DNA of 64,000 nucleotides from Thiobacillus sp. UBA2597 (GTDB taxonomy: Bacteria > Pseudomonadota > Gammaproteobacteria > Burkholderiales > Thiobacillaceae), in assembly GCA_002339725.1 (NCBI GenBank), contig DDKN01000001.1:173-64172 (forward strand), written 5' to 3'. The notes beneath the pieces were generated by a model. The model made no database searches, was not told the origin of the DNA, and saw nothing but the letters and a program-made list of their open reading frames with translations. Position numbers and translations under genes: made by a program. Below, one piece after another: positions 7,707-56,533 of the stretch. Each line of letters starts with the position of its first letter. Within the stretch, counting starts at the first letter, position 1.

Positions 7707-8603
7707 ATGATCCTGACCCGTCTACACCTGCTTGCCGCGGCGGTTTCGCTCAGCCTGGCCGGCTGTGCCAGCATTCCCAGCGGTTCGGAGGAATTCCAGG
7801 GCGTGTTCACGGTCGACCCGGCCTTCAACCTGCCCGGCACGAAAACCGGCGCGGCCCAGGCCGCGGGCAACGCCAACAAAGCGCCTTTCTACTGTTCGGC
7901 CGAGGCCCTGGAACCCTTCAATCTGGACCGGGACAGCCTGCCCGGCATTGCCGCCCCGGCCTATCAGCATGCCACCAGCGAGGCCCTGCGCAACCGGCTG
8001 CAGACCCATTTGATGAGCCTGTCCGACCGCAACTGCGAATGCCACAAGGGCGCCATCTACGCCAATGCCGCGAGCAGCAATTTCGGCCTGGGCACCCTCA
8101 CCTCGACGCTCGGCACCGCCGGCGCCCTGGTCGGCGGCGAGACGGCCAGCCGGGTGCTGAGCGGCCTGGCCGGCCTGAGCAACGCCACGCGCGCCCAGAT
8201 GAACGAGAGCTTCTATCAGAACTATCTGGCCGGGGCCATCCTCAAGGCGATCGACAAGGATCGCGAGCAGATGGCGCAGGAGATCGAACGGCGCCAGGCC
8301 CTGCCGTTCGAGCGTTATTCGCTCGATGCCGCCATCCGCGACGCCCAGACCTATCATCAGAAATGCTCGTTCTATGCCGGCGTGCTCGCCCTCACCGCGG
8401 AGGCCGGCAAGATCGGCCTGTCAGGCAACGAGCTGAAGGGACGCCTGGACGAGATCCGCAACCAGATCGCGGCCAACGAAACCGCGTTCGGCAAGGGCAG
8501 CGAGGCGGCGAAAAAACTGAACGCGCCCCTGCTGCGCCAGCTTGAGATCATGCAGATGCAGCTGATCGGCACCCCGGGCGGCGCACCCCCGGGCGGGCGT
8601 TAA
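7707..8603 (+). CDS. Hypothetical lipoprotein
   Basis: Lipobox LSLAGCAS. High GC3 coding bias. No recognisable domain. Confidence 0.6.
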   Translation: MILTRLHLLAAAVSLSLAGCASIPSGSEEFQGVFTVDPAFNLPGTKTGAAQAAGNANKAPFYCSAEALEPFNLDRDSLPGIAAPAYQHATSEALRNRLQTHLMSLSDRNCECHKGAIYANAASSNFGLGTLTSTLGTAGALVGGETASRVLSGLAGLSNATRAQMNESFYQNYLAGAILKAIDKDREQMAQEIERRQALPFERYSLDAAIRDAQTYHQKCSFYAGVLALTAEAGKIGLSGNELKGRLDEIRNQIAANETAFGKGSEAAKKLNAPLLRQLEIMQMQLIGTPGGAPPGGR

Positions 8604-38712: not shown

Positions 38713-39375
38713 TCAGGCGAGCGAGGCCAGACGGTGGGCCTGGCGCGTGGTCTCGGGCAAACGATAGCGCGGCGTGCAGGCCAGGGTGATTGCGATCGCC
38801 TGCGCCAGGCTGAGCTTGTGGCCGACCGAGACATAGACCGGCTTGACGCCGACCCGGCTGCGCAGCACGGCGCCGATCACCTCCGCGCCGTCCATGAGCG
38901 GGGTCCAGGCCCCCTTCTCGTTGGCCGGCTCCACCGCCTGGCCACAAAGCCGGGTCTTGCCCACCCCGATGGTGGGATGGTCGAGCAGCACGCCCAGGTG
39001 ACAGGCGATGCCGAAGCGGCGCGGATGCGCCAGACCCTGGCCATCGCACAGGATGACATCGGGCACGCATTTCAATTGCGCCAGGGCCTGCAGCACCGCC
39101 GGCAGTTCGCGGAAGGAGAGCAGGCCCGGCACATAGGGAAAGCTGGTCGGCCGCCGCGCCACGGCCTGCTCCACCAGCCTGAGATCGGGAAAGTCGAGCA
39201 CCGCGACCGCCGCCCGGGTGGTTTTGCCCGCGTCCTCGAAGCCGACGTCGATCCCGGCGACATGGCGCAGCTGGATCGGATGTTCGCGCCGATCGACCGC
39301 CTGCCGCAGGCGCTGCTGCAGTGCGATCGCCTCGGCGGGCGTCAGATTCCAGGGATGTTCGAGAACGGCTCGCAT
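38713..39375 (-). CDS. nfi: Endonuclease V (deoxyinosine 3' endonuclease)
   Basis: [10 protein letters not shown]...[15 protein letters not shown]...[22 protein letters not shown]...PTIGVGK matches Nfi hallmarks. Confidence 0.92.
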
Positions 39376-39458: not shown

Positions 39459-40343
39459 ATGCGCCGCTGGAATCTGCTGTTGGCCGTTCTTTTGCCGCTG
39501 TTCGTCACTGGCAACGCCATGGCGGCGGGTAACTGGTTCGAAGACAAGCTGAGCTGCATCGTCACCGGCGCCGTGGCCGGCGCGGCGATCGGCGCGGCAG
39601 CCGACGGCATCACGGTCGGCGGCGGCACGGTGGGCGGTGCCATCATCGGCGCCCTGCTCTGCCAGCCCAAAGACAGCGACGGCGACGGCGTGCCCGACCA
39701 CCGCGACAAATGCCCGGATACCCCGAAAGGCGTCCAGGTCGATGAGCACGGTTGCCCGCTTGATTCCGACGGCGACGGCGTGCCCGACTACAAGGACAAA
39801 TGCCCCAACACGCCCAAGGGCGCCAAGGTCGATGCCGACGGCTGCGAGACCAAGCCGGCCGCCCCGCCGGCCGAGGTGAAGCCGACGCCCGCCCCCCAGG
39901 CCGAGGCCGACAGCGACGGCGACGGCGTGCCCGACAGCAAGGACAAGTGCCCCGGCACCCCGAAGGGCGTCAAGGTGGACCACGAAGGCTGCCCGCTGGT
40001 CGAGAAGATCACGCTCAAGGGTGTCTGGTTCGCCTTCGATTCGGCCCGCATCACCGAGGAATCGGCCAAGGTGCTGGACGAGGTGGCGAAGGTGTTCAAG
40101 CGCTATCCCAACCTGGTCGCCGAGATGGCCGGCCACACCTGCAACATCGGCACCGAAAAGTACAACCAGGGCCTGTCGGAGCGGCGGGCCAATGCCGTGC
40201 GTGACTATCTGATCAAGCAGGGGGTCGATCCCAAGCAGCTGACCGCCAAGGGATATGGCGAGCTGCAGCCGGTCACCAGCAATGCCACCCGTGAAGGCCG
40301 GGCGCAGAACCGCCGCACGGAGATGCGCATCCTCAAGCAGTAA
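39459..40343 (+). CDS. OmpA-family protein with thrombospondin type-3 (calcium-binding) repeats
   Basis: Signal peptide, three DSDGDGVPDxxDKCPxTPKGxxVDxxGC repeats, and an OmpA_C domain (GHTCNIGTEKYNQGLSERRANAV...NRRTEM). Confidence 0.88.
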   Translation: MRRWNLLLAVLLPLFVTGNAMAAGNWFEDKLSCIVTGAVAGAAIGAAADGITVGGGTVGGAIIGALLCQPKDSDGDGVPDHRDKCPDTPKGVQVDEHGCPLDSDGDGVPDYKDKCPNTPKGAKVDADGCETKPAAPPAEVKPTPAPQAEADSDGDGVPDSKDKCPGTPKGVKVDHEGCPLVEKITLKGVWFAFDSARITEESAKVLDEVAKVFKRYPNLVAEMAGHTCNIGTEKYNQGLSERRANAVRDYLIKQGVDPKQLTAKGYGELQPVTSNATREGRAQNRRTEMRILKQ

Positions 40344-40350
40344 GCGCCCG

Positions 40351-40377
40351 GGCGGGCCTCACGGCCCGCCTCTTTTT
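40351..40377 (+). terminator. Rho-independent terminator after the ompA-family gene
   Basis: GGCGGGCC-TCAC-GGCCCGCC followed by TCTTTTTG. Confidence 0.75.
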
Positions 40378-40392: not shown

Positions 40393-40959
40393 ATGGGGCG
40401 CGCCATCTCCCATGTCGTCGGCTTCGACGACGCCCCGTTCCGGCGCAGCCAACGCGGCGACGTCCTGGTGGTGGGTGCCGTCTTCGCCGGCGACCGGCTC
40501 GACGGCGTGCTCTCCACCCGGGTGCGGCGCGACGGGGTCAACAGCACCGCGCGCCTGATCGCGTGCCTGACCGGCTCGAAATATTTCGCCCAACTGCAGG
40601 CCATCCTGCTGCAGGGCATCGCCTTCGCCGGCTTCAACGTGATCGATCTCAAGGCCCTGCACCAGGCCACCCGGCTGCCGGTGCTGGTGGTCGCCCGCCA
40701 CCGGCCCGACCTGGCCGCCATCCGCCGCGCCTTGCTGGAGAAGGTGCCGGGCGGCGCGCGCAAGTGGCGCCTGATCGAGGCCGCCGGCCCCATGACGCCC
40801 ATGGCGGGCGTGTACTGCCAGTCTGTCGGCATCGCGGCGGACGCCGCGGAAACGCTGATCGCCCGCCTGCAGCGCCATGGCCGCCTGCCGGAACCGCTGC
40901 GAGTGGCGCACATGATCGCCGGCGGCGTCACCACCGGCGAGAGCCGGCATCGGGCCTGA
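40393..40959 (+). CDS. DUF99 (UPF0215) family protein, endonuclease V-like fold
   Basis: MGRAISHVVGFDDAPF...GVLSTRVRRDGVNST...ILLQGIAFAGFNVIDL...LPVLVV is characteristic of DUF99. Confidence 0.75.
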   Translation: MGRAISHVVGFDDAPFRRSQRGDVLVVGAVFAGDRLDGVLSTRVRRDGVNSTARLIACLTGSKYFAQLQAILLQGIAFAGFNVIDLKALHQATRLPVLVVARHRPDLAAIRRALLEKVPGGARKWRLIEAAGPMTPMAGVYCQSVGIAADAAETLIARLQRHGRLPEPLRVAHMIAGGVTTGESRHRA

Positions 40960-40981
40960 CCGGCGGCTGCAGCGGGAAACC

Positions 40982-41716
40982 TCAATACCAGATCTCCATG
41001 CGCAGGCCCTTGCCGTCCTGCTCGACCGCCCCCTCGGGCAGACGCCGCGCCTGCCCCAGATCGATCTGCCGCGCCACCCAGGCCAGGACACAGGCATCGA
41101 TGATGTCATCCAGCGCCAGCCGCTGCGCGCCATAGTCTCGGCGCACAGCCTCCAGCTCGGGCAGCCACCGGCCCAGTGCACGCTCGAGCAGGGCCAGGCG
41201 CTCGGCCCGGCCCTCGGCGCGTTTCTTGTTGTGGCGCATGGGGCTGCCGGCCAGGTGCAGGAAGGCGAGTTCCGGGTGGGCCTCGACGATATACCCCTGC
41301 CGGGCCGGGCTCAGGCAGGCATCCAGCTCACGCAGCTTGGGCAAAAGATTGAAGGCCTGCCGGCTCAGGCCCAGGCCGGCGTCACTGCCGGCCCGGCTCA
41401 AGCGCAAGGCCTCGGGGTAAGTGCGGGCACCGAGCACGGGCCGGGCCGGCGGCGAGAACACGCTGGCGCGCCGCTGCCCCAGACACCGGCGCGCGGCCCG
41501 GTCGCAGCTGCGCCCACCCGGTTGCGCCGCCGCCAACAGCCCGATCGGCATGTCCACCGCGATGCGCGCCGGTCGCTCGGCCAGGGCCGGCACGGCATCG
41601 AAACCGGTGCACAGGCGATGCCGCAGCGCGACCAGCTGCGCGCCGCGATAGCCGAGCAGGATGACGAACCAGCCCGCCCGGCAGCCGTCGACCCCGGCAT
41701 ACCAGCGCTCAGCCAT
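40982..41716 (-). CDS. DUF429 domain-containing protein (predicted RNase H-like fold)
   Basis: YAGVDGCRAGWFVILL...IAVDMPIGL is the typical DUF429 N-terminus. 8-nt overlap with the rtcA stop. Confidence 0.7.
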   Translation of the reverse strand: MAERWYAGVDGCRAGWFVILLGYRGAQLVALRHRLCTGFDAVPALAERPARIAVDMPIGLLAAAQPGGRSCDRAARRCLGQRRASVFSPPARPVLGARTYPEALRLSRAGSDAGLGLSRQAFNLLPKLRELDACLSPARQGYIVEAHPELAFLHLAGSPMRHNKKRAEGRAERLALLERALGRWLPELEAVRRDYGAQRLALDDIIDACVLAWVARQIDLGQARRLPEGAVEQDGKGLRMEIWY

Positions 41717-42746
41717 GCACGAGTTCGATCCGGTAATGCGTGCCCTGCGCGGTCAGCTTGAAGCGCACCGGCAGGAATTGCTCGATCAGCCACATCACGG
41801 TGCGGGCATGCAGGCTGGGCTCACGCACGGTGAAGCGTGAGCTGCCCGGCGCCTGGGCCAGATAGATCAGCAGCTGATCGGCGGCATGCCCATCGAACGC
41901 CGCGCCGCTTTGCAATTCCGCGCGCAGGGCGAGGCCGGCCGCCTCGCCCAGGCGCTCGGCCGGCACGCCGCGCTCGGCCACGCACGCCGCGCCGAGCAGG
42001 CTGTGCTCGGTCTCGGCCGCCAGCACTAGGGCGCCGCCGGTGCCGAAGGCCTCGTCCTGCCCCAACACTTTGGCCTCGAGCGCCACCGGGCCCAGGTCGG
42101 TGAGCAGCGCCCCGGCCGCGTTTGCCATGCGCTCGGCGATCGACAGGGGCAGATGCGCGACATGGGCCACGCCGCGAATGGCCCGCACCGGCCCCGCCGT
42201 CTCCAGCACCAGGGGCTGGAGCTGTTTGCGCGGCGCGAGCTTGAGGCAGAGCTCACCGCCGCCGCGCGGGTAATAGCCGCGGCGCAGCGATTCGATCTGA
42301 ACCGACACCCCCAGACGCGCGAGCCAGGGCAGGAAGATCAGGCGCAGATAATCCAGGGGTGGCGCCATTTTCACGTCGGTGCCACCGGCGATGCAGAGCC
42401 GGCAGGGGCCATCCGCATGCAGGGCCACCGGCAGCAGGGCCTGCAGCACCAGGCTGACGCTGCCGGCGGTGCCCACCTCGAAGCGATAGTCGCCGCCACG
42501 GATGCGGCCGGGTGCAAAGCGGATTGCGCGCGCACCCAGTTCGGCCCCGCTCAGCTCGCCCTGGCTCACGGCGGCCACGGCACGGAGCGCGGCCAGGTGC
42601 TGCGGCATCAGGCCGGGCTTGGCGCGGCCGGCCCGGATGTTGGTCAGATGCAGCGGCCGGCCGGTGATCGCGGCCAGGGCCATAGCCAGGCGCGCTAGCT
42701 GGCCGCCGCCCTCGCCGTGACTGCCGTCGATCTCGATCGGGCTCAT
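41709..42746 (-). CDS. rtcA: RNA 3'-terminal phosphate cyclase
   Basis: IEIDGSHGEGGGQLARLAMALAAITGRPLHLTNIRAGRAKPGLMPQHL...VGTAGSVSLVLQALLP are RtcA hallmarks. Confidence 0.92.
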   Translation of the reverse strand: MSPIEIDGSHGEGGGQLARLAMALAAITGRPLHLTNIRAGRAKPGLMPQHLAALRAVAAVSQGELSGAELGARAIRFAPGRIRGGDYRFEVGTAGSVSLVLQALLPVALHADGPCRLCIAGGTDVKMAPPLDYLRLIFLPWLARLGVSVQIESLRRGYYPRGGGELCLKLAPRKQLQPLVLETAGPVRAIRGVAHVAHLPLSIAERMANAAGALLTDLGPVALEAKVLGQDEAFGTGGALVLAAETEHSLLGAACVAERGVPAERLGEAAGLALRAELQSGAAFDGHAADQLLIYLAQAPGSSRFTVREPSLHARTVMWLIEQFLPVRFKLTAQGTHYRIELVHG

Positions 42747-43456
42747 GCCAGCAGCGCCTTCAGTTCCAGGGCGTCGCGCACCGCATAGGCCGCCTCGTCG
42801 TTGTCGAAATAGACATAGGCCGTCTTCAACGGCTGCCGCGCGAGCCAGGCCGCCCAGCCGGCGAGCGCCTGGCGGCCGTAGCGCCCGCAGTAGGCCGCGC
42901 CCGGCCCGTGCAGGCGGATATAGCTGAAGTCGGCGCTGATCTGACGCGGGCTCTCGAAACCGGCCAGGTCATAGATGCAGAAGGCGGCGTTGTGTTCGGC
43001 CAGCAGATCGAACACCTCCCGGCAATGCCAGCTCGGATCGCGTAACTCGAAAGCGACGCGCAGGCCACGCGGCAGGGTTTGGAGCAGGTGGCGTAGGCGT
43101 TCCAGATTCACCCGCCAGTTGGGCGGCAACTGAAACAGGAGCGGCCCCAGCTTGTCGCCCAGGCCGGAGGCGGCCTCGAGCAGCGGCGGCAGGCTCAGCT
43201 CCGGCGCCTTGAGTTTCTTCAGGTGGGTGATATAGCGGCTGGCCTTGACGCTGAACACGAAGTCTTGCGGCGTGGCCGCACGCCAGGCGGCGAAGGTCTC
43301 GCGCGTGGGCAGGCGATAGAAGCTGCGGTTGATCTCGACGCTCGCCAAATGCCGGGCATAGAACGCCAGCCAGTCGGATTCCGGCAGTGACTCGGGGTAG
43401 AAGCGGCCGCGCCAATGGGGATAGACCCAGCCCGAGGTGCCGATCAGGATCTGCAT
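42743..43456 (-). CDS. DUF72 (UPF0759, YecE-like) TIM-barrel protein
   Basis: MQILIGTSGWVYPHWRGRFYP...VEINRSFYRLP...FVFSVKASRYITH is typical of DUF72. ATGA overlaps at both ends. Confidence 0.8.
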   Translation of the reverse strand: MQILIGTSGWVYPHWRGRFYPESLPESDWLAFYARHLASVEINRSFYRLPTRETFAAWRAATPQDFVFSVKASRYITHLKKLKAPELSLPPLLEAASGLGDKLGPLLFQLPPNWRVNLERLRHLLQTLPRGLRVAFELRDPSWHCREVFDLLAEHNAAFCIYDLAGFESPRQISADFSYIRLHGPGAAYCGRYGRQALAGWAAWLARQPLKTAYVYFDNDEAAYAVRDALELKALLA

Positions 43457-44442
43457 CAGGCCCCCTGGAAGGCGCGTTCCAGCTCGGCCCGCAATTCCAC
43501 CTCGCGCCCGCGGTAGATCGGCGAGAAGTGAAAGGGCTCCACCGCCTTCACGCCGGCCGCGCGCGCCAGGCGCCCGGCCTGGCCGGCAGTGAGGTGCCGC
43601 TTGTCGGCGGCGCGCGCCGCCGCCGTGTCGAGGAAGACGCTCTCGATGAACAGGGTGTCGGCGCCGCGCGCGAGTTCGACGATGGCCGCGGCATTGGCTT
43701 CGCTGAACACCACATCGGTGACATAGGCGAGCTTCATGCCGGGCGTCACCTCGACGCAGTCGAGCAGCGTGTTCACGGGGAGCGGCTGCCCGCTCGGCCC
43801 GGGAATGGTTGCCGCCGCATCCTGCCCGGCCAGCACCGCCCGCTTGAGTCCCTGCAGCCAGGGACCGACCGCCAGGCCGCGTTCGGCGAGCCGGGTCTTC
43901 CAGATGTTCACGTGCTGCGTCTCCTCCAAAGCGAAGCCCAGGCAGGGCGTGCCGTGGTCGAGCAGCGCACAGCGCACGCGAAAGCCCGGCTCGGCCAGCA
44001 GCACCCCATCCTCGATTCGACCCTCGCCCAGCGCCTCGCGCCGGAACCCCTGGCGCACGTGAAAACGCGCCCGCTGCACCCGTCCCGGCGCCAGCAGCTC
44101 GGTCACCTCCAGGCCGAAATCGTTGCCATAACGGTGCAAAAGGTTCCAGGTATAGGCGGCGAGCTTGGCCTCGACCTTGGCGATGAAGCCGGGCGGGCCA
44201 TACAGCCGCACCGCGCGCTCGCGCCCGAGGCAGATGCGCAGCAGCCAGTCGAAGCCCATGAAGTGATCCATGTGGCAGTGCGAGACGAAGATGTCCGACA
44301 CGCGCAGGATCTTGCGCGGCGCCAGGGCGCGGATATCGCCCAGATCGAACAGCAGGGCCCGGCCCTCGAACAGGAAATCGACGAACAGGCCGGGATCGCC
44401 GAAGGGTTCGTTGACGAGACAGGGATGCAGCGCGCGCCGCAT
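43456..44442 (-). CDS. MBL-fold metallo-hydrolase (RNase Z/beta-CASP-like candidate nuclease)
   Basis: The HxHxDH motif reads VSHCHMDHFMG. 328 aa. Its start shares one base with the Nudix stop (TAATG). Confidence 0.75.
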   Translation of the reverse strand: MRRALHPCLVNEPFGDPGLFVDFLFEGRALLFDLGDIRALAPRKILRVSDIFVSHCHMDHFMGFDWLLRICLGRERAVRLYGPPGFIAKVEAKLAAYTWNLLHRYGNDFGLEVTELLAPGRVQRARFHVRQGFRREALGEGRIEDGVLLAEPGFRVRCALLDHGTPCLGFALEETQHVNIWKTRLAERGLAVGPWLQGLKRAVLAGQDAAATIPGPSGQPLPVNTLLDCVEVTPGMKLAYVTDVVFSEANAAAIVELARGADTLFIESVFLDTAAARAADKRHLTAGQAGRLARAAGVKAVEPFHFSPIYRGREVELRAELERAFQGA

Positions 44443-44876
44443 TAGTCGGTGAGCTGTTGGCGCGCCCAGGCCAGGATGGGCTGGAGCCGGGGCGGCAAGA
44501 GGCGTTGGGCCTCGGCGAAGTCGACCCAGCGCCATTCGTCGTGCTCGGGCCGACCCAGTTCGGGCGCGATCGGCAGGTGGATGTCACGCTGCCGGGTCTC
44601 GGCCAGGTAATAACGCGCCACCTTGCCCCGGCGGTAGGGCTCGGTTTCGCGGTAAATCTCGCCCCAGCGAAAATCGAGATCGGTGACCGAAGACTCCTCG
44701 GCCGTCTCCCGGATGGCGCCGGCCAGGGGGGTCTCGCCCGGCTCCAGGGTGCCCTTGGGGAAATCCCAATGGTTGTAGCAGCGCAGGATGAGCAGGCGCC
44801 AGTCACCACCCTCCCGGCGCGCGACGACCACCCCGGCGGACAAACGCCTGGCAGCAGGATTGGTTTGAGCGCTCAT
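44442..44876 (-). CDS. NUDIX hydrolase (NUDT2/Ap4A-hydrolase-like)
   Basis: Nudix box GTLEPGETPLAGAIRETAEESSV preceded by WDFPKG. Confidence 0.85.
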   Translation of the reverse strand: MSAQTNPAARRLSAGVVVARREGGDWRLLILRCYNHWDFPKGTLEPGETPLAGAIRETAEESSVTDLDFRWGEIYRETEPYRRGKVARYYLAETRQRDIHLPIAPELGRPEHDEWRWVDFAEAQRLLPPRLQPILAWARQQLTD

Positions 44877-45243
44877 GTGCCAAGCATACGGGCTTGCCCC
44901 GGGAATGAGTAGGGTGCGCGCCGGGCTATAGTTGAGACATGACTCTGCCATGCGTCACGCGCGCCCTGCCCGACGTTTCAGTGCCGGTCCCAGCGGCAAC
45001 ATGCCGAATCAAGCCGCCGGGTGATGGTGGAGTCACGGCTGTCTGCGCCCGCCCGGCGCGTGCGCGGTCCGGTCCGGGCAATCGCGAAATTTTGGGCTGC
45101 GGGCCAGGCGGATGCGGGCCGGCCGCCCCAGGCCCGGCCGGCGGCAAAACCCGGTATGGATGTACCAGTTTCGTGGCGGCGAAGGCTCATGCTACCGTTC
45201 TCTCCGACTATTCAAATAAAACAACGACAAATCAGGGCAGGCC

Positions 45244-53558: not shown

Positions 53559-54555
53559 ACAACGCATCTTGCTGGCCCACGGCAACGGCGGCCGCTTCAT
53601 GCGCGAACTGGTCGCCGAGCTCTTCGCCCGCCACCTGGCCAACCCCCTGCTCGACACCGACGCCGACGCCGTGCCGCTGCCAAGTCTTTCAGGCCAGCTC
53701 ATGCTCACCACCGACGGCTTCACCGTGCAGCCGCTGGAGTTCCCCGGCGGCAACCTCGGCAGCCTGGCCGTGCACGGCGTGATCAACGACCTGGCCGTAG
53801 CCGGCGCCGCGCCGCGCTTCCTCACCCTCTCCGCCCTGATCGAGGAAGGCCTGGAGGTCGCCCAGCTCGACCGTCTGATTGCCAGCTTCGCCCAGGCCGC
53901 CCAAGCCAACGGTGCGGCGGTGGCGGCCGGCGACACCAAGGTGGTGCCGCGCGGCCAGGGCGGCGGCCTCTATCTCAACGTCGCTGGCATCGGTGAAAAA
54001 CAGGCCACTGCCACGCTCGGGCTCAAGCAGATCCGGCCGGGCGACGCCGTGCTGGTCTCCGGCCCGGTCGGCGACCACGGCGTCGCCGTGCTGCTGGCGC
54101 GCGAACAGTTCGGCCTCTCCGGCGAGTTGCGTTCCGACTCCGCCTCGGTGCTGCCCCTGGCCCAGGCCATCTGGCACCTGCCCGGCCTCAGGTTCATGCG
54201 CGACCCCACGCGCGGCGGCCTCGCCACCGTCGCCCACGAGATCGCCCAGGCCACCGGCCACAGCGTCGCCCTGCAACAAGCCGCCGTGCCCGTGCGCGGC
54301 GCGGTGCAATCGGTGTGCGACATGCTCGGCTACGACCCCTACTACCTCGCCTGCGAAGGCCGCATCGTCGCCATCGCCGAGGCCGCCACGGCGGAACAAA
54401 TACTGACCGCCTGGCGCGCCCTGCCGGGCGGCGCGGACGCCGCGATCATCGGCCGCATCGAGGCCGGCGGCGGGCGGGTGCTGCTGGAGACGGAACTGGG
54501 GGGACGGCGGGTGCTGCCGGAGTTGGAGGATGATCCGTTGCCGAGGATTTGTTGA
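53551..54555 (+). CDS. hypE: Hydrogenase expression/formation protein HypE
   Basis: AIR-synthase-like fold sequence ending in the diagnostic C-terminal PRIC. 8-nt overlap with hypF. Confidence 0.92.
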   Translation: MDEQRILLAHGNGGRFMRELVAELFARHLANPLLDTDADAVPLPSLSGQLMLTTDGFTVQPLEFPGGNLGSLAVHGVINDLAVAGAAPRFLTLSALIEEGLEVAQLDRLIASFAQAAQANGAAVAAGDTKVVPRGQGGGLYLNVAGIGEKQATATLGLKQIRPGDAVLVSGPVGDHGVAVLLAREQFGLSGELRSDSASVLPLAQAIWHLPGLRFMRDPTRGGLATVAHEIAQATGHSVALQQAAVPVRGAVQSVCDMLGYDPYYLACEGRIVAIAEAATAEQILTAWRALPGGADAAIIGRIEAGGGRVLLETELGGRRVLPELEDDPLPRIC

Positions 54556-54619
54556 TAGATTTAGTCATTCGAGCAGAAGCAACGCAACAAACCAATACAA
54601 ACAGATTTCAGGGATAAAA

Positions 54620-55291
54620 ATGAAAGGACACATCACTTCATACGTCGAAGAAAAGCAATATGGGTTTATCAAGGGTGAAAATGGAAAAGATTACTTCTTC
54701 CACAAAAATGACGTCGTCGACCAAAATGAGATTTTGGATGGCCTCAATGTCATCTTTGATCCAATCCCTACTCGCAAAGGATTAGCTGCCAAATCCGTTC
54801 AGTTGGGTTTGGCGAATATTCCCATCTACCTTGATCCAGATAGATTTGTCTTCACCAGCGAATCCAGCATTAATGGGCATGAAATTCTTTTCATAACCAC
54901 CTATTCAATCGAGGATAAGGACCCAAACATTGCCAAACTAGCGCTCAGGGAACGGGCACTTTTATATGGCCTTAATGGCGTAGTTGGAGTCCACCTAGAA
55001 AAGAGAACCGCTATGTCAGGGAATTACCGCTACACGGTTCACAGGTTTACAGGAGGGCTTTGTCTAATTAAAAAAATCGCCTACACCATGGATCAGGATG
55101 AAGCTCGGCAAAACGCTCTGGAAGTACAAGATGAGTTGCAGAAGATTCGTCCACGGATTTTTGCCATACACGAACAAGAAAAATTTTTTCTCTTGAGATG
55201 GCTATCAGATTTTTGGACGTATCTAAAAATCACCATAAGTATGAAAATGACCGCCCTGGAAGCCGCTATCCGTTCATGGATGAACCGCTGA
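54620..55291 (+). CDS. Cold-shock-domain fusion protein (CSD + possible YbjQ/DUF74-like domain + hydrophobic C-terminal helix)
   Basis: N-terminus GHITSYVEEKQYGFIKGENGKDYFFHKNDV is CSD-like, with YGFI and YFFH matching RNP1/RNP2. The middle region GHEILFITTY...LYGLNGVVGVHLE is weakly YbjQ-like. The gene and its flanks are conspicuously AT-rich. Confidence 0.6.
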   Translation: MKGHITSYVEEKQYGFIKGENGKDYFFHKNDVVDQNEILDGLNVIFDPIPTRKGLAAKSVQLGLANIPIYLDPDRFVFTSESSINGHEILFITTYSIEDKDPNIAKLALRERALLYGLNGVVGVHLEKRTAMSGNYRYTVHRFTGGLCLIKKIAYTMDQDEARQNALEVQDELQKIRPRIFAIHEQEKFFLLRWLSDFWTYLKITISMKMTALEAAIRSWMNR

Positions 55292-55373: not shown

Positions 55374-56183
55374 CTACTTCCCCGCCTTTGCCGCCAGCGC
55401 ATTCAACACCTTGGCAGCGGCGAGCATGCCGAAGACCGAGGTGACGCAGGCCGAGGAGCCGAAGCCGGCGCAGTTGAGGCCGTGGACGTGGGCGTCTTCC
55501 GGCTTCTCATAACAGACGCCGCCCTCGGCGCTGGGGTAGATCAGGTTCTCGGTGGAATAGACGCAGTCGACGCCGAACTTCTTTTTCGGCTCGCGGGGAA
55601 AGCCGTGTTCCTTGCGCAGCTTGCTGCGCACCTTCGAGAGCAGCGGGTCCTGGCGGGTGCGCGCGAGGTCGTCGATCTGGATGCGGCTGGGGTCGACTTG
55701 GCCGCCGGCGCCGCCGACGCAGACCAGTTTCAATTTATTGCGCCTGCAGTGGACGATGAGGGCCACCTTGGCCCGGGCGCTGTCGATGGCGTCGACGATG
55801 TAGTCGTAGCGCGCGTGCAGCAGCTCAGCCACGTTGTCCTCGGTCAGGAATTCCTCGATCAGATTGACTTTGCAGCGCGGGTTGATGGCGGCGATGCGCG
55901 CGCGCATGGCCTCGACCTTGGCCTTGCCCAGTTCCGGGGTGAGGGCGTGGACCTGGCGGTTGATGTTGGATTCGGCGACGTGGTCGGGGTCGATCAGGGT
56001 CAATTCGCCGATGGCGGTACGCGCCAGGGCCTCGGCCACCCAGGAGCCGACGCCGCCGATGCCGATGACGCAGACATGGGAGCGCTGGAAGCGTTCGAAG
56101 GCGGCCGGGCCATAGAGCCGGCGCACGCCGCCGAAGCGGCGCTCGAAGTCGATGGCGTGCTCGGCCTCGAACAGGTCGCTCAC
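55374..56183 (-). CDS. tcdA: tRNA threonylcarbamoyladenosine dehydratase (TcdA/CsdL)
   Basis: FERRFGGVRRLYG...VCVIGIGGVGSWVAEALARTAIG.LTLID.D.V..SNINRQ is typical of TcdA. The GTG start at 56183 overlaps the upstream stop (GTGA). I reject the 109-aa Arg/Pro-rich N-terminal extension in the ORF track. Confidence 0.85.
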   Translation of the reverse strand: MSDLFEAEHAIDFERRFGGVRRLYGPAAFERFQRSHVCVIGIGGVGSWVAEALARTAIGELTLIDPDHVAESNINRQVHALTPELGKAKVEAMRARIAAINPRCKVNLIEEFLTEDNVAELLHARYDYIVDAIDSARAKVALIVHCRRNKLKLVCVGGAGGQVDPSRIQIDDLARTRQDPLLSKVRSKLRKEHGFPREPKKKFGVDCVYSTENLIYPSAEGGVCYEKPEDAHVHGLNCAGFGSSACVTSVFGMLAAAKVLNALAAKAGK

Positions 56184-56461
56184 TGGTCGGCGATCTTCTG
56201 CGCTTCGGGGTCGAACTCGGCCTTCACCGCTTCGAGGGCGTCGCGCAGGGTTTCTTCGGTGAGGGTGTTGAGGTTTTCCGCCAGCACCTCGGCGGCGTCG
56301 ATGGTGTCCTGGTCGTCGGGCAGGGTCGCGCTGTCGAGGTTGGCCACCAGCACGGCGGCGGCGCCCACCACTTGCAGCAGCTTCTGGCGTTCGGCCATGA
56401 GCAGCTCGATCTCCTCCCGGAGCAGGGTGACTTCCTCGTCGTTCATGGCGCGGTGGGGCAT
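56180..56461 (-). CDS. Small acidic hypothetical protein (88-93 aa)
   Basis: MPHRAMNDEEVTLLREEIELLMAERQKLLQ..., helical and acidic. Translationally coupled to tcdA. Only the C-terminal part of the 379-aa ORF looks coding. Confidence 0.5.
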   Translation of the reverse strand: MPHRAMNDEEVTLLREEIELLMAERQKLLQVVGAAAVLVANLDSATLPDDQDTIDAAEVLAENLNTLTEETLRDALEAVKAEFDPEAQKIADQ

Positions 56462-56533
56462 GGCGGCTTCCTTCGATTCGCGGGGGATGAGCGTGGGATA
56501 ATAGGCGCACTGCCAGCTGCCCGCAAACCCGCC

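Follow-up and report, generated by a model that had tools for sequence, protein, structure and literature searches.

Rtc systems of the Escherichia coli type comprise rtcB-rtcA and a divergent rtcR, often accompanied by Ro/Y RNA. RtcA, the RNA 3'-terminal phosphate cyclase, uses ATP to convert an RNA 3'-phosphate into a 2',3'-cyclic phosphate and also acts, slowly, on a 2'-phosphate; it furthermore adenylylates 5'-phosphate ends, DNA 5'-phosphates included, whereas DNA 3'-phosphates are bound 500- to 1000-fold more poorly than RNA and are not cyclized (PMC3854526). The role of RtcA has been in doubt ever since RtcB proved able to seal 3'-phosphate ends directly, and Das and Shuman described the combination of both enzymes as an apparent futile cycle (PMC3854526). 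The rtcA gene considered here is located on a 64-kb stretch of DNA from Thiobacillus sp. UBA2597 (contig DDKN01000001.1; GC content of ~68%), referred to below as the window. It forms part of a chain of five minus-strand genes that also encodes a Nudix hydrolase, an RNase Z-like protein with a metallo-beta-lactamase (MBL) fold, and members of the DUF72 and DUF429 families. This operon is regarded as a local assembly, or fusion, of recurring two-gene modules with RtcA as their hub. The favored reading, to which we assign a probability of roughly 0.4, is that the fusion of these RtcA-centered modules would serve, by analogy with known end-processing enzymes, the ligase-free healing of RNA, probably tRNA, 3' ends.

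Several described systems resemble this locus in part. Bacterial Pnkp/Hen1 and T4 Pnkp/Rnl carry out healing-and-sealing RNA repair by means of end-modifying enzymes, and the window operon likewise combines enzymes for 3'-phosphate/cyclic-phosphate and 5' ends; however, it encodes no kinase, ligase, or methyltransferase and shares no homologous proteins with them. Like the E. coli-type Rtc system, it includes a true RtcA that has both the insert domain and the catalytic histidine, and both systems presumably concern RNA 3'-phosphate or cyclic-phosphate ends. However, the RtcB ligase, RtcR, and a sigma-54 promoter are all absent from the window, and the operon is for this reason not a member of the canonical Rtc group. 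In eukaryotes, the short RNase Z enzymes ELAC1 (PMC10275265) and rice TMS5, or RNase ZS1 (PMC11897441), take the 2',3'-cyclic phosphate off tRNA lacking CCA, which precedes CCA re-addition. The MBL protein of the window is also a short-form RNase Z-type enzyme with a tRNA arm, and both enzymes are among the structural matches of its model. However, the ELAC1/TMS5 pathway belongs to eukaryotes and does not involve RtcA, and the window protein belongs to a distinct bacterial subfamily (NF002558), for which cyclic phosphatase activity is only putative.

Two further likenesses concern DNA. Endonuclease V (EndoV) and endonuclease dU (Endo_dU), which have been linked to alternative excision repair, adjoin the operon and recur near RtcA or DUF429 in relatives, but they form separate units, convergent with the operon or beyond an OmpA-like gene, and their substrates are deaminated bases rather than phosphate ends. 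In the PolB2-associated DNA damage neighborhood (PMC11791011), DUF72 is found with nucleic acid damage genes, and an SRAP gene lies beside RtcA in one of our loci (L168); RtcA was not reported in that neighborhood, though, and the window has no PolB2. The window arrangement is thus classed as an RtcA-based end-processing operon with a partner set unlike that of canonical Rtc. Since the partners are phosphoesterases and nucleases, the expected outcome is the cleaning of ends and not their sealing. A search of the available literature retrieved no paper combining any two of RtcA, DUF72, and DUF429, although an earlier description may exist; the supposition, made in a preliminary description of this DNA, that the operon was new is supported to this extent.

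Organization of the RtcA operon

Five open reading frames (ORFs), all intact, occupy positions 40982 to 44876 of the minus strand. The chain starts with the Nudix hydrolase of 144 amino acids (aa) (44442 to 44876; PF00293), followed by the RNase Z-like, MBL-fold phosphodiesterase of 328 aa (43456 to 44442; NF002558), the DUF72 TIM-barrel protein of 237 aa (42743 to 43456; PF01904), which is translationally coupled to RtcA, RtcA itself (345 aa; 41709 to 42746; TIGR03399), and, as the last gene, the DUF429 member of 244 aa (40982 to 41716; PF04250), a predicted RuvC-like nuclease with an RNase H fold. The stop and start codons of successive genes, as read from the sequence, overlap at all four junctions: by 1 nucleotide (nt) between Nudix and MBL (TAATG, with TAA at 44444-44442 and ATG at 44442-44440), by 1 nt between MBL and DUF72 (TGATG, with TGA at 43458-43456 and ATG at 43456-43454), by 4 nt between DUF72 and RtcA (ATGA at 42746-42743), and by 8 nt between RtcA and DUF429 (41709-41716, with ATG at 41716-41714 and TGA at 41711-41709). 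The preliminary description had reported the same chain of intact genes and read these junctions in the same way, apart from a small error at 43456, where it gave ATGA instead of TGATG. It had also placed a convergent DUF99 gene 22 nt from the end of the operon, and a gap of this length indeed separates the DUF429 stop codon (ending at 40982) from that of the DUF99 gene, now Endo_dU (40959).

Four successive stop/start overlaps indicate a single transcription unit, and the five genes are very probably carried on one transcript; a shared function is not argued by this architecture. Possible stop/start overlaps of -1, -4, or -8 also occur at ~6 of the 25 other same-strand junctions of the window, a rough count that relies on crude, GC3-based gene calls, which missed RtcA and DUF72. 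There is no convincing terminator inside the chain, and the one consensus match, within DUF429, corresponds to chance level. The intergenic region upstream of the chain (44877 to 45243, minus strand) is presumed to contain the promoter, although no sigma-70 or sigma-54 consensus was recognized there: a sigma-70 scan of 38.5-45.4 kb identified no promoter, and a sigma-54 search returned chance-level matches, with no TGGCAC-N5-TTGCW-like site on the minus strand of 44877-45243. Rfam and tRNA scans over the entire window gave no family and no tRNA, and neither tblastn with RtcB nor a search for RtcR homologues produced a match anywhere in the 64 kb.

Recurrence of RtcA-centered gene pairs

To place this operon in context, 173 RtcA loci were gathered from a scan of 185,579 species genomes, a metagenome scan, and twelve exact-protein look-ups, and their six-frame ORFs were searched with the window proteins. 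Locus L007 is identical to L097, and the members of two further pairs, L092/L093 and L173/L174, are nearly identical to each other. The complete five-gene chain was found outside the window in a single locus, L005, from a Hydrogenophilaceae metagenome-assembled genome (MAG), which encodes an RtcA 79% identical to that of the window and has the entire surrounding region in common with it. A 2-kb fragment with 96% identity (L088) shows MBL-DUF72-RtcA-DUF429 as far as it extends. Since the complete chain thus recurs in only one close relative, the five-gene unit is not conserved; the preliminary description had set in advance that a lack of synteny outside very close relatives would refute its proposal.

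In contrast to the unit as a whole, parts of it recur. Three modules are observed, namely, DUF72→RtcA, RtcA→DUF429, and Nudix→RNase Z-like, and EndoV and Endo_dU tend to sit nearby. Among the 30 loci with an RtcA at least 57% identical to that of the window, DUF72 is immediately upstream in 9, mostly with a 4-nt overlap; an overlap with the RtcA start is seen in L006, L008, and L091 and also in Microbulbifer, whose flanking regions are unrelated. The RtcA→DUF429 pair is present with an identical 8-nt overlap in four of these loci (L005, L172, L173, and L174), and DUF429 is usually absent from related RtcA loci. In L168, L169, and L170, the Nudix→RNase Z-like module is found 1.5-2 kb upstream, with an opposite-strand gene between it and DUF72-RtcA. 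Endo_dU is convergent in four loci of this group, and EndoV is the next gene in four. The proposal of a self-contained pathway was too strong in view of the split between Nudix-MBL and DUF72-RtcA in relatives and the frequent lack of DUF429. The proposed linkage of RtcA to DUF72, DUF429, and the MBL gene, in turn, does recur elsewhere as two-gene modules, but not as a five-gene unit.

More distant loci extend this pattern. Of the 18 loci with an RtcA of 45-57% identity, three Burkholderiales MAGs have an RNase Z-like gene downstream of RtcA; the two genes are adjacent in L020 and L023, and a single BON-domain gene intervenes in L013. Within the 125 loci below 45%, a DUF72→RNase Z-like pair is present in L162 at a distance of 1.5 kb from an RtcA of 39% identity, and in the related fragment L151 a DUF72 gene is visible before the fragment ends. 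Neither in the Burkholderiales loci nor in L162 did a search for the Nudix box reveal a Nudix gene adjoining the RNase Z-like one, so the Nudix→RNase Z-like pair is confined to the closer relatives of the window and Methylophaga. In Methylophaga sp. OBS4 (L171, JAPDMV010000003.1), a 70-aa remnant of the RtcA C terminus (7796-8008) overlaps the DUF429 start by 8 nt and is followed by DUF429 and EndoV, with PGA_cap, while a Nudix→RNase Z-like pair is convergent. RtcA seems to have decayed in place here, with DUF429-EndoV-PGA_cap and the Nudix→RNase Z-like pair being retained. DUF72 is also found within 2.2 kb of RtcA in Thermoproteota and in the low-GC bacterium L157, in other transcription units: two opposite-strand genes lie between both genes in the former, and DUF72 is part of a divergent operon in the latter. 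These two cases are weak evidence for linkage.

The identities of the partner proteins track that of RtcA from 79% down to 39-46% (e.g., 69/67, 54/57, and 39/46/41%), and because they fall in step with RtcA, the partner genes have traveled together over a long divergence. Selection is argued by the reappearance of the partners in other orders, orientations, and flanks, as seen in Microbulbifer, the Burkholderiales, L162, L172 to L174, and Methylophaga. Judged from these gene neighborhoods, it appears likely that RtcA, DUF72, the RNase Z-like enzyme, and DUF429 are functionally linked.

The alternative is that no common pathway exists and that unrelated housekeeping genes have merely kept an inherited order in one beta/gammaproteobacterial lineage, the overlapping stop and start codons reflecting only a compact, high-GC genome. 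The restriction of the full chain to the closest relatives agrees with this explanation, as does the possible overlap at about a quarter of the other same-strand junctions of the window. So does the wider gene order that L168 to L170 have in common with the window, namely, EndoV-PFOR-DHODH in L170 and an upstream fatty acid desaturase in L168/L169, because of which the conservation in these three loci is partly inherited. In Desulfobulbus, Sulfurifustis, and most archaea, moreover, RtcA is a solitary gene. The more remote RNase Z-like genes, with 33-48% identity, which come from plasmid or replicon records of alphaproteobacteria and Eleftheria, are solitary, and plasmid-borne RtcA (at most 42% identity) is either part of a canonical rtcR-rtcB-rtcA arrangement or solitary, providing no more examples of the modules. 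However, descent alone normally fails to keep gene order at the 39-46% identity down to which partners recur beside RtcA in differing arrangements. At least four separate settings have DUF72 no more than 2.2 kb away from RtcA, and a single-copy gene is expected in a random 12-kb stretch with a frequency well below 1%, according to our rough estimate. The absence of a common pathway is considered unlikely.

The preliminary description had also pointed to the lack of RtcB and RtcR. This is correct for the window, but it does not distinguish the locus, since only 4 of the 173 loci, on 3 contigs, have RtcB at a distance of up to 6 kb from RtcA. RtcA without RtcB is the rule and not the exception.

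Properties of the encoded proteins

All window proteins of the operon, as well as Endo_dU, score well over the Pfam cutoffs for the families previously named (NUDIX, Lactamase_B_2, DUF72, RTC with RTC_insert, DUF429, and Endo_dU), and the reported motifs HCHMDH, GTSGWVYPHW, and GVDGCRAGW are present in the MBL, DUF72, and DUF429 proteins, respectively. RtcA reaches 392.8 bits with the TIGR03399 equivalog model (cutoff of 250) and shows the PF01137 (RTC) and PF05189 (RTC_insert) architecture. Its H313, which aligns with the adenylate-accepting nucleophile His309 of the E. coli enzyme (structure 1qmh), is invariant across 19 homologues. The protein shares only ~40% identity with the E. coli enzyme and 38-42% with the RtcR-linked RtcA proteins of Xanthomonas and Methylosinus replicons. 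Judged by these features, it is a genuine member of the RNA 3'-terminal phosphate cyclase family with predicted cyclase activity.

The MBL protein, previously presented as an MBL nuclease, is a member of a recognized subfamily. It scores 418 bits with the NCBIfam model NF002558 ("ribonuclease Z"; cutoff of 315) and 107 bits with the canonical RNase Z equivalog TIGR02651 (cutoff of 293), and since the former cutoff is passed and the latter missed, it represents a divergent RNase Z subfamily. Its AlphaFold2 (AF2) model (pLDDT of 92) has as best Foldseek matches the B. subtilis RNase Z/tRNA complex (2fk6, E value of 9e-20), E. coli ZiPD, human ELAC1, and rice RNase ZS1; the matches 2fk6, 4gcw, 2cbn, 1y44, and 3zwf have E values of 1e-19 to 1e-12 and TM scores of 0.5-0.7. 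The residues H55, H57, D59, H60, H163, D243, H283 (in an HLT sequence), and H305, which are invariant in 34 homologues, cover the HxHxDH motif, the motif III His, the motif IV Asp, the HST-type His, and the motif V His. In a profile alignment, the catalytic motifs match those of B. subtilis RNase Z, HLT falling on its HST motif. The segment LAVGPWLQGLK aligns with IPPGPVYQKIK of the B. subtilis enzyme, the GP-motif segment of the flexible, tRNA-binding arm (exosite), and the arm residues G193, W195, L196, and K200 are invariant in the same 34 homologues. As far as sequence and model indicate, all catalytic motifs and the tRNA-binding arm are thus kept.

The Nudix protein matches PF00293 with 63.6 bits (cutoff of 21.1; E value of 2.5e-17), and its Nudix box, GTLEPGETPLAGAIRETAEESSV at 44753, follows the pattern GX5EX7RETXEESSV. 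Of the consensus box GX5EX7REUXEEXGU reported earlier, the catalytic REx2EE is intact, whereas two noncatalytic positions deviate, with T in place of the hydrophobic residue and S in place of the late G. The nearest solved structures are Ap4A hydrolases (1kt9, E value of 1e-10), with RppH next, and the protein is not an RppH equivalog (34 bits with the best NCBIfam RppH model versus a cutoff of 139). It is best described as Ap4A hydrolase/RppH-like by homology.

The two DUF proteins match their families with 227.7 bits (DUF72, PF01904; cutoff of 25.3; E value of 2e-67) and 198.4 bits (DUF429, PF04250; cutoff of 23; E value of 1.5e-58). The solved structure nearest to DUF72 is the TIM barrel of TM1631 (1vpq, E value of 1e-19), a protein predicted to bind DNA in the manner of endonuclease IV (PMC3828134); the window protein is not a YecE equivalog (58 bits versus a cutoff of 412). 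The DUF72 family is close to UV damage endonuclease and, along with SRAP, shows enrichment in the vicinity of polB2 (PMC11791011). For DUF429, a sequence search finds no solved relative. Its AF2 model (pLDDT of 96) has RuvC as best Foldseek match, at a weak level (7xhj, probability of 0.98, E value of 6e-3, TM score of 0.34-0.51), which agrees with a published classification (PMC3985635) of DUF429 among the RNase H-like proteins, within the clade that contains RuvC. The residues D10, D55, E145, D203, D204, and D207 are invariant. Some DUF429 proteins of other phyla are fused to Nudix domains, and the genomic context of the family was reported to be conserved and nonmobile (PMC3985635).

Proposed function and alternatives

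In the proposed healing of RNA 3' ends, RtcA would first spend ATP to convert a 3'-phosphate monoester, which resists diesterases, into a 2',3'-cyclic phosphodiester, a chemistry shown for the family. The RNase Z-like phosphodiesterase may then remove the cyclic phosphate, leaving a 3'-OH; alternatively, the EndoIV/UVDE-like DUF72 TIM-barrel enzyme may also do so. More speculatively, the Ap4A hydrolase/RppH-like Nudix protein could clear 5' triphosphate or App ends, including side products of RtcA, and the RuvC-like DUF429 nuclease could trim. Both kinds of end group are classic NDP-X substrates of the Nudix type. In its most specific form, ATP-driven cyclization by RtcA combined with an RNase Z-like or DUF72 diesterase would amount to a ligase-independent 3'-dephosphorylation that, as in the ELAC1/TMS5 case, provides tRNA with a 3'-OH for CCA re-addition; we consider this version quite improbable. 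If true, this ligase-independent route would provide the first physiological rationale for RtcA outside rtcBA and the first activities for DUF72 and DUF429, two large families. The five-gene operon as such is a local arrangement of limited importance. The recurrent modules matter more, and the coupling of RtcA to DUF72, together with the repeated linkage to RNase Z-type genes, offers a testable handle on the role of RtcA outside the ligase system.

Several points weigh against the healing of RNA 3' ends. Conservation does not extend to the five-gene chain, and most of the 173 RtcA loci lack any given partner. Hydrolysis of a cyclic phosphate normally leaves a monoester, and its removal in two steps is proposed only by analogy. 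The RNase Z-like protein could simply be a housekeeping tRNA 3'-processing enzyme, as more distant members of its family are solitary. Furthermore, an involvement of DNA instead of RNA is suggested by DUF72, EndoV, Endo_dU, SRAP (L168), and both Ogt and RPA (L024).

The latter genes lead to the alternative of a DNA repair neighborhood, in which EndoV and Endo_dU would nick beside deaminated bases, DUF72 (UVDE/EndoIV-like) and DUF429 (RuvC-like) would process the nicked or abasic DNA, RtcA would adenylylate DNA 5' ends or act on DNA ends that carry a 3'-phosphate or a terminal ribonucleotide, and the Nudix protein would sanitize damaged nucleotides. EndoV is a deoxyinosine endonuclease, and Endo_dU cuts dU-containing DNA (PMC11585767). 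The structural kinship of DUF72 to UV damage endonuclease and endonuclease IV and its enrichment near polB2 with SRAP (PMC11791011, PMC3828134) fit such a role, and so does the adenylylation of DNA 5'-phosphate ends by RtcA (PMC3854526). DNA repair genes keep turning up around the RtcA clade of the window: an SRAP gene, for abasic site shielding, is convergent on RtcA in L168 (8102-8764, minus strand), and a RecJ gene lies 2 kb from RtcA in L169 (10069-11769, minus strand). The Thermoproteota RtcA overlaps an RPA-like gene, with Ogt adjoining. However, RtcA binds DNA 3'-phosphate far more poorly than RNA and cannot cyclize it (PMC3854526), the RNase Z-like partner retains a tRNA-binding arm, and EndoV and Endo_dU are separated from the five-gene chain by strand or by transcription unit. 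The S30AE/HPF neighbors of RtcA in Burkholderiales point to translation and RNA, which is weak supporting context for an RNA role. Taken together, a DNA repair neighborhood appears rather unlikely.

An anti-phage or conflict system that senses or repairs toxin-cleaved RNA is highly improbable, since, although RNA repair is often linked to ribotoxin conflicts (PMC3854526), PADLOC gave only marginal matches to candidate systems (Nudix to PDC-S07, E value of 2.5e-6; DUF429 to PDC-S44, E value of 3.7e-4) and no significant match for RtcA, DUF72, MBL, or Endo_dU, the cluster has a GC content normal for the window and no flanking mobile element genes there, and the DUF429 context was reported to be conserved and nonmobile (PMC3985635).

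Neighboring genes

The Endo_dU gene (40393 to 40959, plus strand; PF01949) scores 194.7 bits with its Pfam model (cutoff of 32.7; E value of 1e-57) and stays below the NCBIfam equivalog cutoffs (NF001977, 194.8 versus 235; EndoDuHalo, 61.5 versus 200). The statement that the function of DUF99 is unsettled is outdated, as the family was characterized in 2024 as endonuclease dU, which cleaves DNA 3' of deoxyuridine in a metal-independent manner (PMC11585767). Endo_dU is convergent with RtcA or DUF429 in L005, L089, L169, and L170. A strong terminator-like hairpin of 9 pairs, including 8 G-C pairs, with a T5 run behind it (40350 to 40371, plus strand), is located after the OmpA-like gene and ends 21 nt before the Endo_dU start codon; with the hairpin and T5 only 21 nt upstream, hardly any space is left for a separate Endo_dU promoter. 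The gene preceding the hairpin (39459 to 40343, plus strand; Pfam OmpA and TSP_3) encodes an OmpA family/TSP3 repeat lipoprotein-like protein between EndoV and Endo_dU. It has an equivalent in the same position in L005 and is probably an unrelated neighbor. The EndoV gene (nfi; 38713 to 39375, minus strand) is located ~1 kb beyond Endo_dU and scores 297 bits with NF008629 (cutoff of 230); EndoV directly follows RtcA or DUF429 in L090, L100, L170, and L171.

Other genes recur at RtcA loci. NTPase_1 (PF03266, THEP1-like) is found directly upstream of RtcA in eight distant metagenome loci with an RtcA of 38-40% identity (L110, L113, L116, L117, L120, L124, L134, and L156) and in three loci of the window's clade (L096, L173, and L174); we know of no description of this pairing. 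A 251-aa protein without Pfam or PADLOC match is encoded between NTPase_1 and RtcA in L096 (1069-1821), L173 (891-1646), and L174 and after RtcA-EndoV in L100 (1509-2240). PGA_cap (PF09587) is present 0.7-4.5 kb from RtcA or directly after DUF429/EndoV in L012, L018, L020, L021, L171, L173, and L174; this CapA-type family is presumably metallophosphoesterase-like, which would fit a role as end phosphatase. A gene of the thiopurine-S-methyltransferase (TPMT) family is divergent from the Nudix→RNase Z-like module in L168, L169, and L170 (e.g., 2903-3490 in L170) and is absent from the window.

In Burkholderiales MAGs, several genes are located near RtcA (L012, 7027-7653; L013, 7670-8068; L020, 2719-5193 and 8115-8606), which encode the ribosome hibernation factor S30AE, once as a fusion with a cold shock domain, as well as BON, CBS, and LonB-like proteins. 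This neighborhood suggests a stress or dormancy context. In the Thermoproteota MAG L024 (5959-8710), RtcA overlaps a downstream RPA-like gene with multiple OB folds by 8 nt, and Ogt-like and crenactin-like genes lie between RtcA and the DUF72 gene 2 kb upstream.

Elsewhere in the window, a 253-aa ORF with an N-terminal cold shock-like segment (54530-55291, plus strand) is located in a low-GC patch at 54-56 kb (GC content of 0.58 versus 0.67-0.71 around it) that looks horizontally acquired. It is flanked by a hypE-like gene and by a minus-strand ORF (55374-56510), which we take, by eye, to be ThiF-like.

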